Shown here: piece after piece, positions 32,667-34,705 of the stretch
How the letters are laid out: each line of letters begins with the position of its first letter
Numbering within the stretch: the stretch's first letter is position 1
Source: Bacilli bacterium
Lineage (GTDB): Bacteria; Bacillota_I; Bacilli_A; RF39; UBA660
Length of the DNA: 64,000 nt
NCBI GenBank assembly: GCA_030602345.1
Contig: JAUVZX010000001.1
Location: forward strand, 131,251 to 195,250
Direction of reading: 5' to 3'
Made by a program: the position numbers and the translations under genes
Notes under the pieces: model-generated
The model's database searches: none
The model's input: only the letters and a program-made list of their open reading frames with translations
What the model was told of the DNA's origin: nothing

Positions 32667-33380
32667 TTACATATTTAAAAGAAAGTTCTTCAAATCTAAT
32701 AATCTACTATCATGAGGATTAAAACTAATAATTTTATCTATCAATTTAATATAAGTTTTATTTTCTTTTGAATACTCTAAACTATAATCAAAATTATAAT
32801 CAAACATCAAAGCTAAAATTAAAATATAATGATCTATCTTGCTCTTCACCTGAGAATGATTTATAGATTTTTTACTTAAAAAAGTATTATAAACTTCATC
32901 ATTAATACACTCATCAATAGTAACTATTCTTAATTCTTCTGATAAATACAAGTTAATTATGTCTAACTTGTCAGCATCTCTTATTATGTTTGTAAATAAA
33001 ACTTCTCTATCAGTAAGTTCTTTACCCACCTCAAATTTATTATGATAAAAAATAGCTTTTTTAATCAAATCTATCTCTTCTTCACTATTAAAGATTGGTA
33101 CTTTTTCAATCATTTCGATTCCTAACTGTGCATGATCAGTAGATATTGAATCATCAAAGGTATTATATAACCTCAACTGCTCAAACCTTCCAATGTCATG
33201 CAAAAGACCAATTAAACCTGCTAAACGAACATCTTTTTCATTTAAGTTTATCGATTTAGCTATTTCAATTGAAAAATTCACAACTCTATATGTATGTGCT
33301 TCTTTTAGACCAATACCCTTTTGGGTATAATCATAATCTTTTAAAAATTCTTTAAACGCCTGTATTTCTATCAATTCCAC
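32667..33380 (-). CDS. HD domain phosphohydrolase
   Basis: HD motif (…LLHDIGRFEQ…), 237 aa. Confidence 0.7.
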   Translation of the reverse strand: MELIEIQAFKEFLKDYDYTQKGIGLKEAHTYRVVNFSIEIAKSINLNEKDVRLAGLIGLLHDIGRFEQLRLYNTFDDSISTDHAQLGIEMIEKVPIFNSEEEIDLIKKAIFYHNKFEVGKELTDREVLFTNIIRDADKLDIINLYLSEELRIVTIDECINDEVYNTFLSKKSINHSQVKSKIDHYILILALMFDYNFDYSLEYSKENKTYIKLIDKIISFNPHDSRLLDLKNFLLNM

Positions 33381-34705
33381 TCACCTAAAAACAAATATGT
33401 CCCATCATCATCATTTATACCTGCAGCTATTTTCATATTGGATAAACCAGTTTCTAAGTTGAAGTCGTGATAACAATAGTTACCATTAACTGCATCAACT
33501 TGCATACCTGATAAACTTCCACCTTTGCCATAACAAGGTTCATAAAAAGGTGAATTTACCGCTAAATATTTTACTATGGCAATACCTGAACCACCAGAGC
33601 CACCAGTTCCCAATCTTGCACCACCGCCACCACTACCTGTAGCAGGTTGACCATTACCACCATTAGCATTATTAGCTCCAGATCCACCTCCACCAATTCC
33701 GCCCAAGGTTGTTGCTCCACTATTATTAGTCTGACCACCTCCACCAGCATATGTAACACTAGTTGTTCCGGGAGAATATCTTGTTGGATTAAAAATAGTT
33801 AAAGTTATGCCCGCTCCTCCAGGACCCCCTGTTGTTCCAGGGGCAGATGCTCCTCCACCAGAACCATGATTATATGGTGAAGAATAGTTTGATGCTCCTC
33901 CCTGATTACCATAACCTGTTCCTCCACCATTATTAGTTTGGGTAGAGGGACTTACTAAACCAGCAGGGTTCATATGACTTGCTCCTCCACCAGAACCTCC
34001 AGACCTTAAAGAAGCATCTTGGCTTGCATTGGATGGTCCACCGCCAAACGCTGTGAAAATCGTTGTTTGTCCTGAAATACTATTAAATAAACCAAAGGTA
34101 GAATCTCCACCTTTACCCCCTACACCCGAAGTTGAACCAGGGCCTCCAGAACCTATGTTGGCAAAATACTCCTGACCAGCACTTGCAACGACAAAACCAT
34201 GAATTACACCTCCGGCTCCTCCGCCACCACCGCCATAAGCAGTTCCTTGGCCGCCACCACCGCCAGCAATAACTAAAACTTCCATTTGAAATTCAATCGG
34301 ATCTATTATTTCGATCGTTCTTACAAAAAAACCTAATCTACCTTTAGAATCCAAAACTTCATATAAAATAGTATATGAACCATTAACATTATAATCAAAA
34401 GAAGGAGAAGATATATAACTTATTCTCTCTGGCGCTAATTTATTTCCCAAATTATCATAAGCTAATACGCCATCTAGCAAATCTATTTCTACTCCTCTAG
34501 ACCATTTTATATTTCTGCCAGTAACAACAAAATTAGGAAGAATTGTCGTTCCATTTAATTCAAGTTCTATTTCTTTATTTATTCTATCTAGATTTACTTT
34601 TGTTGCTCCTAAAACACCTAATATTCCTAGTATTAATACTAAGAATAAGATGAAAATTGGATATAGTATCCCAGATATAGCAAATCCTTTGTTATTTAAT
34701 TTCAT
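33371..34705 (-). CDS. Glycine-rich secreted/membrane-anchored protein with Ig-like (DUF5011-like) domain and non-canonical pilin-like N-terminus
   Basis: The N-terminus MKLNNKGFAISGILYPIFILFLVLILGIL has G|F but no Glu+5. Residues ~60-140 have an Ig-like pattern (…VTGRNIKWSRGVEIDLLDGVLAYDNLGNKL…GSYTILYEVLDSKGR…). Then ~250 aa of GGGG(x)G-rich repeats follow. Confidence 0.45.
   Translation of the reverse strand: MKLNNKGFAISGILYPIFILFLVLILGILGVLGATKVNLDRINKEIELELNGTTILPNFVVTGRNIKWSRGVEIDLLDGVLAYDNLGNKLAPERISYISSPSFDYNVNGSYTILYEVLDSKGRLGFFVRTIEIIDPIEFQMEVLVIAGGGGGQGTAYGGGGGGAGGVIHGFVVASAGQEYFANIGSGGPGSTSGVGGKGGDSTFGLFNSISGQTTIFTAFGGGPSNASQDASLRSGGSGGGASHMNPAGLVSPSTQTNNGGGTGYGNQGGASNYSSPYNHGSGGGASAPGTTGGPGGAGITLTIFNPTRYSPGTTSVTYAGGGGQTNNSGATTLGGIGGGGSGANNANGGNGQPATGSGGGGARLGTGGSGGSGIAIVKYLAVNSPFYEPCYGKGGSLSGMQVDAVNGNYCYHDFNLETGLSNMKIAAGINDDDGTYLFLGEWN

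Follow-up and report, generated by a model that had tools for sequence, protein, structure and literature searches.

The 64,000-nucleotide stretch of the Bacilli bacterium contig JAUVZX010000001.1 analyzed here in its entirety (the window) carries, on the reverse strand at 33371..34705, an open reading frame (ORF) for a glycine-rich protein of 444 amino acids (aa), which is the subject of this work together with the protein family defined by its N-terminus. The ORF, first pointed out in a preliminary description, is real, and the protein it encodes divides into five successive segments, all given here on the reverse strand. A putative class III leader, MKLNNKG, with Gly-1 at its end (aa 1-7, 34685..34705), is recognized by family conservation and by its register in hhalign alignments and would be cleaved after its last residue. 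It is followed by an α1-like hydrophobic helix beginning FAISGILYP... (aa 8-52, 34550..34684; AlphaFold2 [AF2] model and family conservation), an Ig-like domain of the DUF5011/Bact_surface_Ig-like type (aa 53-137, 34295..34549; PF16403, 7js4_A, and AF2), a Gly-rich domain of the Pfam family Gly_rich_2, predicted to bind a ligand (aa 138-385, 33551..34294; PF21722, PHROGs, and AF2), and a C-terminal extension with Cys391 and Cys411 (aa 386-444 plus the stop codon, 33371..33550), modeled by AF2 at low confidence.

The most conspicuous of these segments, residues 138 to 385, contains 32% glycine and 14 GG(G)xG-type runs (residues 1 to 52 contain 11.5% glycine). No tandem repeat was found in the gene at the DNA level, and thus the abundance of glycine is to be ascribed to the protein and not to slippage or simple-sequence DNA. 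The region scores 54.2 bits with PF21722 (Gly_rich_2), for which the gathering score is 24.3 (E = 2.7e-14; residues 141 to 380, profile positions 17 to 225 of 226), and it matches the PHROGs family phrog_2295 at E = 4e-32 (residues 138 to 387). Structural modeling of this region had been proposed at the outset; the AF2 model, built with 65 homologues, has a mean predicted local distance difference test (pLDDT) score of 80 and values mostly above 90 across residues 140 to 385. It places a β-sandwich ahead of a multi-layer lattice of extended Gly-rich motifs, with polyglycine-II geometry as a predicted feature, and this β-sandwich-to-lattice fold is that of the receptor-recognizing tip of the Pam3 fiber (PMC9608196). 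A Foldseek search with the model returned the same proteins only, as weak matches. The Pam3 tip fold is in turn related to S16 gp38 and to ALK (PMC9608196), and Bxb1 gp33, the Pam3 fiber, and S16 gp38 have been grouped as glycine-rich polyproline II-helix bundle domains (PMC13243192). Judged by its profile matches and its model, the Gly-rich region is a folded polyglycine-II-type domain homologous to phage tail-fiber tips, with a predicted role in ligand binding. The extent of about 250 aa originally assigned to it holds (138 to 385), and the idea of a β-helix or spacer gives way to a folded domain of the PF21722/phage-tip type.

The nearest homologue of the Gly-rich domain, P0005 (52.7% identity over 245 columns), lies in a phage tail module, with a Peptidase_S74 protein on one side and baseplate-type genes on the other. 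Full-protein BLASTP against P0005 or against the pilin P0045 under-reports the similarity because of composition correction, and HMMER and Smith-Waterman figures are used instead. Relative to its homologues, the window protein has two insertions, at about residues 203-214 and 305-315, which sit where loop variation would be expected. Its domain resembles Pam3 gp24, gp38 of Salmonella phage S16, and the Bxb1 gp33 "tail wing brush" in combining a β-sandwich, a lattice of GGGGxGG-type motifs, and variable loops (PMC9608196, PMC13243192). Whereas the phage tips are mounted on a trimeric fiber shaft, the window domain is carried on a membrane- or pilin-type helix, and no fiber chaperone gene lies beside the 444-aa gene. 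The glycine-rich domain (GRD) of ALK/LTK (PF12810; a TNF-like plus GRD ligand-binding region) differs in that the window protein carries PF21722, and both the sequence and the predicted structure of the latter are far closer to the phage proteins than to ALK.

A reading in which the gene is itself a phage or prophage tail-fiber gene, or the recent remnant of one, has to be considered at this point and is most improbable. The genes around it are not phage genes but ffh, ldh, an HD-domain phosphohydrolase gene (the HD gene), a pilin gene, and infC-rpmI-rplT, and its position after ffh is syntenic with a "Bacilli bacterium" metagenome-assembled genome (MAG; locus L059) in which a related gene follows homologues of ftsY, ylxM, ldh, and ffh. 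The helix and the Ig-like domain are common to chromosomal bacterial genes, and identity to one relative, P0002, falls from 100% over the helix (residues 1 to 52) to 60% over the Ig-like domain and about 40% over the Gly-rich domain. A membrane-spanning helix at the start is also not a phage-fiber trait; to our knowledge, phage fibers do not begin with one. A scan of viral contigs gave 600 pattern matches, none of which was confirmed by tblastn, probably as a result of low-complexity masking, and it does not bear on this reading either way.

The comparison with P0002 bears on how the domains have been combined. Its Gly-rich domain ends in the conserved ...GGTITSFNGYTIHAFTASGTF, as do the pilin-borne domains of P0037 and P0045, and the window protein is without this motif. 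Such a mosaic suggests, from the sequences, a cassette replacement at the boundary between the Ig-like and Gly-rich domains. The falling identity to P0002 along the protein, with a phage protein as the closest match to the Gly-rich domain of the window protein, points to a binding module that has diversified rapidly or been swapped while its stem stayed the same.

Ahead of the Gly-rich domain, residues 55 to 141 match PF16403 at E = 3.1e-4 and 21.2 bits, below the gathering score of 27, and a sequence search of the PDB found the INT domains of Clostridium perfringens ZmpB (7js4_A, E = 2.1e-5). The model shows β strands over this region at low pLDDT (45 to 75), and precomputed annotations of the relatives P0003 and P0004 place PF16403 above threshold. 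An Ig-like assignment of residues 53 to 137 is reasonable, and the domain is probably a spacer or stalk. The Ig-like/DUF5011 domain that had been proposed for residues 60 to 140 is supported in this way, at a weak score and with the ZmpB match beside it, and the Cys-containing C-terminus described with it is equally real. The latter comprises residues 386 to 444 and holds the only two cysteines of the protein. Its first part parallels the GGTIT..GYTIH.F hairpin with which other Gly_rich_2 proteins end, and the remainder, which the model predicts at low confidence, is specific to the 444-aa protein.

The N-terminus reads MKLNNKG-FAISG, with the Gly7 and Phe8 (+1) of a prepilin and with Gly12 at +5, exactly as had been stated. 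A leader ending in Gly-1 and followed by a hydrophobic +1 residue is expected of a pilin, as are some 20 hydrophobic residues starting an α1 helix of about 50 residues, and AF2 predicts a single unbroken helix over residues 6 to 52 (block-mean pLDDT of 89 to 97 over residues 11 to 50); the Glu expected at +5 is replaced by Gly. A word-based search with residues 1 to 140 found proteins with a common MKLNNKGFAISGILY... but unrelated C-termini. A DNA-pattern scan for LNNKGFAI, with one genome per species, yielded 153 confirmed relatives, of which the best 80 were taken for detailed locus analysis (the 80 loci); almost all of these come from uncultured gut "Bacilli," "Tenericutes," Erysipelotrichaceae, or CAG-type MAGs. 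Furthermore, when 1.84 billion cluster representatives (50%-identity clusters) were searched with a profile built from residues 1 to 62, it matched 2,247 proteins at E ≤ 1e-3 and 878 clusters (50% identity) at E ≤ 1e-10, and the match lay at or near the protein N-terminus in all 150 of the 150 matches listed.

Conservation was evaluated in sets of 26, 80, and 139 family members, the last found with the profile. Gly-1 is present in every member of the three sets, with Phe+1, Ala+2, and Ile+3 adjoining; in the first two sets, these four residues were preset by the search pattern or collecting motif. In the profile-found set, Tyr+8 is near-invariant (138/139), and the +1 residue is Phe in 127 of the 139 members and Met, Leu, Val, Tyr, or Ile in the rest, a variation (F>M>L) like that of prepilins. 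The +5 residue is Gly, Ser, Thr, Ala, or Val, with one Lys, and is Glu in none of the members of the three sets. The leader is mostly 7 aa long, LNNKG varies little or not at all, and the conserved positions cluster at 3 to 15, whereas mature lengths range from about 45 to about 1,300 residues. At the lower end, the small member P0060 has a predicted helix over residues 6 to 49, and the leader plus the helix alone make up the 58-aa ORFs of L027 (10001-10177), L031 (10001-10177), and L033 (3270-3446). All three lie directly 5' of a canonical pilin gene and could be either decayed genes or capping subunits reduced to a minimum. As far as its sequence tells, this N-terminus is built like a class III (prepilin) signal peptide that lacks Glu5: the leader is short and basic and ends in Gly, the +1 residue is hydrophobic with an F>M>L preference, and a hydrophobic stretch opens a helix of about 50 residues. 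In agreement with this, hhalign aligned the family N-termini with the canonical prepilin N-termini of the window and related loci at 89.8% probability (E = 1.8e-6), with Gly-1 on Gly-1, Phe+1 on Phe+1, and the family +5 (Gly) opposite Glu5; the match covers 32 columns, mostly hydrophobic, to which compositional similarity contributes, and because the aligned stretch is so short and hydrophobic it is supportive rather than decisive.

The same residues allow another mode of export to be judged. If the protein were secreted by Sec and processed by signal peptidase I at a site such as that after LGA33, to be released or bound to the wall or S-layer, the basic and then hydrophobic N-terminus and the small residues (G-A) near position 33 would be in keeping. 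Such a route is nevertheless very unlikely: the h-region is about twice as long as usual, the helix is predicted to continue unbroken to residue 52, and conservation falls on positions 3 to 15 rather than around a -3/-1 site. A Pfam and NCBIfam search of the 444-aa protein also found no SLH, LPXTG, LysM, or cell-wall-binding domains, and the S-layer or cell-wall protein offered in the preliminary description as an equal alternative was rejected for want of an anchoring domain.

The genomic settings of the family add evidence of another kind. A canonical N_methyl pilin gene, of about 120 to 160 aa, starts within about 100 nt 3' of the family gene or overlaps it in 18 to 19 of the 80 loci, where chance would give about 0.3 cases (32 canonical pilin ORFs in 1.2 Mb of loci). 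A conserved cassette seen in many of these loci consists of a membrane protein gene, a Glu5-less gene, and, directly after it, a gene for a conserved small Glu5 pilin (about 125 aa), usually with sepF and divIVA just 3' of it. Its Glu5-less LNNKGFAI gene, located at about 10001 in most loci, has a hypervariable C-terminus, and its product ranges from 58 to 473 aa. This two-gene cassette occurs in gut Bacilli MAGs (L018, L021, L023, L026, L027, L029, L031, L033, L035-L037, L039, L041, L043, L056, L058, L063, L070, and L071) and looks like a minimal tip-complex operon.

Pilins and family members also share the modules that they carry. Among 67 family members we found ALK_LTK_GRD in 24, a ricin-type lectin in 13, discoidin-type domains in 10 plus 5, and Ig-like domains in 6, a set of modules that is, by its sequence assignments, an adhesin or lectin repertoire. 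Gly_rich_2 occurs on 1 of the 67, the window protein itself. P0037 and P0045 have a Glu5 prepilin N-terminus and a pilin moiety, then DUF5011 and Gly_rich_2, and in the MAG that encodes P0045 (L002) a neighboring Glu5 prepilin (GFFLAE) carries Ig and ALK_LTK_GRD and adjoins a T2SSE ATPase gene. The Ig plus ALK_LTK_GRD combination, with discoidin, recurs on the Glu5-less family N-terminus in P0003 and P0004, and the FGE-sulfatase-like modules of a window pilin (15018..16517) and of the Glu5-less member of L017 share 34% identity. On this evidence, the family is a conserved N-terminal carrier with interchangeable lectin-like or Gly-rich modules in uncultured gut Bacilli.

As a separate observation, no module is found more often on the family than PF12810 (the ALK/LTK-type GRD; 24/67; L045-L089), into which a discoidin domain is often inserted. 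PF12810 is also found on the canonical Glu5 prepilin next to the T2SSE ATPase (L002 8095-9987 and 10001-11524). Relatives of the ALK ligand-binding domain on bacterial pilins seem not to have been described before.

The window itself is rich in pilin genes. It contains ten canonical GF(T)xxE prepilin genes, all on the reverse strand, most of them modular and scattered among housekeeping genes, and a prepilin peptidase encoded in the genome is accordingly to be expected. The gene at 7601-7960 is followed by the prepilin with the FGE-sulfatase-like module (15018-16517) and by three paralogues (16565-17590, 17642-18562, and 18614-19594) with a common stem and different C-terminal modules ending in ...YFTAGGW(K/Q)TF. 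Three more canonical prepilin genes, for small pilins of the major type, lie at 26780-27088, 27118-27459, and 27596-27922, then one with a Laminin_G_3 (ConA-like) module, as in Streptococcus sanguinis PilC (28016-28966), and finally a 756-aa Glu5 modular prepilin with N_methyl and three CE2_N carbohydrate-binding-like modules (30311..32581). At 10653-12590 and 13136-14971 are two paralogous membrane proteins of about 610 to 645 aa with Ser/Gly-rich tails (...SGSGGGFSSGGGGGGFGGSGGGF), and between them is a 183-aa gene (12526-13077) that looks LemA-like by eye. On the forward strand, a tmRNA gene lies at 43602-43942, with the tag peptide GNTYNLAFA.

The 444-aa gene, the HD gene (32667..33380, reverse strand; PF01966, E = 1.1e-13), and the 756-aa pilin gene stand head to tail. 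Read directly from the sequence, a Shine-Dalgarno motif AGGTGA (34709..34714, reverse strand) lies 3 nt 5' of the ATG of the 444-aa gene. A promoter-like TTGAAA-17-TATAAT (34755..34727, reverse strand), with 11 of 12 matches to the consensus and identified by that match only, sits properly within the 257-nt gap after the ffh terminator hairpin. The HD gene overlaps the stop of the 444-aa gene by 10 nt, the figure given earlier, if it starts at GTG 33380, and by 4 nt (TTGA) if it starts at TTG 33374, which lies behind AGGTGA at a better Shine-Dalgarno spacing and is also the start picked by the public gene call. The two genes are probably co-transcribed, as the overlap had suggested. Shared function is another matter: an HD homologue is directly 3' of a family member in 11 of the 80 loci, usually after a gap of 230 to 270 nt, and a functional link was rejected, since the arrangement looks like conserved synteny and gives no evidence of a common role. 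A terminator-like hairpin with a T-run follows the 756-aa pilin gene (30297..30312, reverse strand), and no terminator-like site was found between 34705 and this hairpin (30312..30297); the 756-aa pilin gene is possibly the last gene of a transcription unit with the 444-aa gene. The gap between ffh and the 444-aa gene also holds, in antisense, a 58-aa ORF with one hydrophobic segment (34765-34941, forward strand), which may or may not be genuine. The hairpin after ffh, at which this ORF ends, could terminate transcription in both directions.

Several findings weigh against a pilin. The hydrophobic segment that follows the basic N-terminus is 27 residues long, which is the length of a transmembrane anchor and also fits a signal-anchor. 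The models PF07963, TIGR02532, ComG, and Gsp matched neither the 444-aa protein nor any of the 67 family members, no globular α/β pilin head is predicted in the AF2 model of the 444-aa protein, and the hhalign match has the shortness and hydrophobic bias already mentioned. Across the 80 loci, family genes are scattered among housekeeping genes and never lie beside pilus assembly genes. PilB, PilC, PilD, and PilMNO were found neither in the window nor in its flanks of about 16 kb, nor within 10 kb of the 80 loci. The only secretion ATPases nearby are Tad/CpaF-like, and one of them adjoins the conjugation region just beyond the window. The search for assembly genes, by BLAST with the L002 ATPase and with motifs for the A24 peptidase and the T2SSE Walker box over the window and all loci, found one Tad/CpaF-like ATPase only, and its strict motif patterns also missed the known L002 ATPase. 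Because the canonical pilin genes of this genome are equally scattered, the absence of machinery weakens the case only moderately.

With respect to those flanks, ribosomal and rpoB genes lie on one side and a Tad-like set beside conjugation genes on the other. The Tad-like set, just outside the window, comprises RcpC, a 362-aa T2SSE ATPase, two membrane proteins, and a 61-aa Flp-like ORF. The conjugative-element-like region occupies 51780-64000 and continues beyond the window end (L092 1-10000), with a VirD4/TraG-type coupling protein (731 aa), a VirB4/TraC-like ATPase (596 aa), an M23 peptidase protein (524 aa), and large membrane proteins.

The transmembrane length of the h-region, the absent pilin hidden Markov model (HMM) matches, the missing head, and the housekeeping surroundings would all be natural in an uncleaved type II signal-anchor adhesin, in which the hydrophobic segment tethers the stalk and the Gly-rich domain to the membrane independently of any pilus. 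We take this possibility seriously as the main rival and consider it unlikely, as it leaves too much unexplained: the near-invariant LNNKG-FAI and Tyr+8 across hundreds of clusters with otherwise unrelated sequence, the in-register match to prepilin leaders, and the adjacency to canonical pilin genes in 18 to 19 of the 80 loci. Identical kinds of modules are, in addition, present on bona fide Glu5 prepilins. Since the organism encodes penicillin-binding and RodA/FtsW-type wall synthesis proteins, a membrane-held protein of 440 aa would probably reach little past the wall.

The N-terminal evidence for a pilin applies equally to a protein that is cleaved by prepilin peptidase and then stays in the membrane or in a short pseudopilus-like display structure instead of a long pilus. 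Sugar-binding proteins of Sulfolobus with class III signal peptides are a comparable case of display. The lack of a pilin head and of nearby machinery would suit such an arrangement, as would the members that have little beyond the helix (the 58-aa ORFs of L027, L031, and L033). It is nonetheless improbable, as we found no positive evidence for a structure of this sort in Bacillota, and the pairing with a conserved small canonical pilin, like the PilA-PilB-PilC precedent of S. sanguinis (PMC9934059), fits a filament tip complex better.

We therefore favor, with a probability of roughly 0.6, the interpretation that the 444-aa protein is a modular Glu5-less type IV pilin-like adhesin displayed at the pilus tip. 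Its architecture, the likeness of its binding domain to phage tips, the conserved Glu5-less prepilin-like N-terminus, the association with pilin genes, and the sharing of modules are features read from sequences and from the model; the steps from there to a tip adhesin are conditional. The leader MKLNNKG would be cut after Gly7 by the prepilin peptidase that serves the ten canonical prepilins of the window. The hydrophobic helix of about 45 residues (FAISGILYP...) would act as the α1 polymerization stem and insert into a type IV filament. Because a subunit without Glu5 cannot neutralize the N-terminus of a subunit above it, such a protein would, by analogy, enter first and remain at the head of the filament, as its uppermost subunit or one of them. 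In place of a pilin head, the helix leads straight into the Ig-like domain, which would act as a stalk presenting the Gly-rich domain. The latter would attach to a ligand on a surface, a likely one being a glycan or a structure on cells of the host or of other microbes or on food particles, with specificity set by its variable loops. A Glu5-less tip pilin had been one of the options of the preliminary description, and it gains from the family signature, the in-register alignment, the pilin adjacency, and the shared modules, while the missing pilin HMM matches and head speak against it.

The closest functional parallel is provided by S. sanguinis, in which the class III signal peptide of PilA is degenerate, lacks Glu5, and is missed by PilFind. 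PilA is modeled at the pilus tip together with PilB and PilC, which are modular adhesin pilins (PMC9934059). Glu5 is absent as well from the K subunit of the HIJK complex, for which a capping position at the filament tip has been argued (PMC9934059). The likenesses to PilA/B/C (PMC9934059, PMC8179133) include the Glu5-less class III signal peptide missed by pilin predictors, the adhesive modules on pilin stems modeled at the tip (Ig-like plus lectin in PilC), and a monoderm host, and the window contains a PilC-like Laminin_G_3 pilin of its own (28016..28966). In contrast to PilA, however, the window protein unites the Glu5-less subunit and the adhesin in one polypeptide, is without a globular pilin moiety and without sequence similarity to PilA, and is encoded outside any pil operon with assembly genes. 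The effectors also differ, being vWA or ConA in S. sanguinis and a Gly-rich domain of the phage tail-fiber-tip type in the window protein.

The absence of Glu5 is likewise common to GspK, PilX, and ComGG, and part of the family adjoins other minor-pilin-like genes. No HIJ-like set lies beside the 444-aa gene, however, whose neighbors are the HD gene and the large pilin gene, and whereas GspK has a pilin head with an inserted α-domain (PMC8179133), the window protein has the helix alone and then unrelated modules. Searches of the 444-aa protein against Pfam and NCBIfam and by fold found no similarity to GspK, PilX, or ComGG in sequence or structure, and the comparison with GspK/PilX drawn earlier gained no support from them.

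Modular type IV pilins have been cataloged through IPR012902, for which the N_methyl motif is required (Raynaud et al. 2021, PMC8179133). They resemble the family in grafting an effector, often carbohydrate-binding, onto a carrier stem, and P0037 and P0045 are pilins of this cataloged kind with Gly_rich_2. Since the family never matches the N_methyl motif, it falls outside that catalog; it is so far uncataloged and is missed by the pilin models tested. The 444-aa protein has none of three formal marks of a cataloged pilin (Glu5, an HMM match, and a head domain), yet by analogy its mode of action would be that of a modular pilin (PMC8179133) joined to a tip subunit without Glu5 (PMC9934059). 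We found no literature linking these glycine-rich domains to pilins.

A broader proposal is that LNNKG|FAI..Y marks a distinct head-less class of type IV pilins, a dedicated capping carrier in which α1 alone would form filaments and onto which gut Bacilli would swap ligand-binding cassettes (Gly_rich_2, ALK/LTK-type GRD, and ricin and discoidin lectins), drawn partly from the gene pool of phage tail-fiber tips. The gradient of identity to P0002 (100%, 60%, and about 40%) and the phage-nearest Gly-rich domain fit such a carrier, and we advance it tentatively, as a possibility that is doubtful at present. If it is true, pili and phages would retarget their binding specificity through the same swapping of modules.

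Modular pilins and Glu5-less tip pilins are already known, but the catalogs rely on the N-methylation motif that this family lacks. The family, moreover, sits in uncultured gut Bacilli with small genomes. If the favored interpretation of the 444-aa protein as a pilus-tip adhesin is correct, the pilus-borne adhesins of the gut microbiome would be substantially under-counted, and a minimal tip subunit would consist of an α1 helix without Glu5 and without a head domain. The Gly-rich receptor-binding fold known from phage fibers and from the ALK/LTK receptors would also be in use on bacterial filaments, which would open the recognition of ligands by this fold, and its exchange with phages, to study in a tractable bacterial system.

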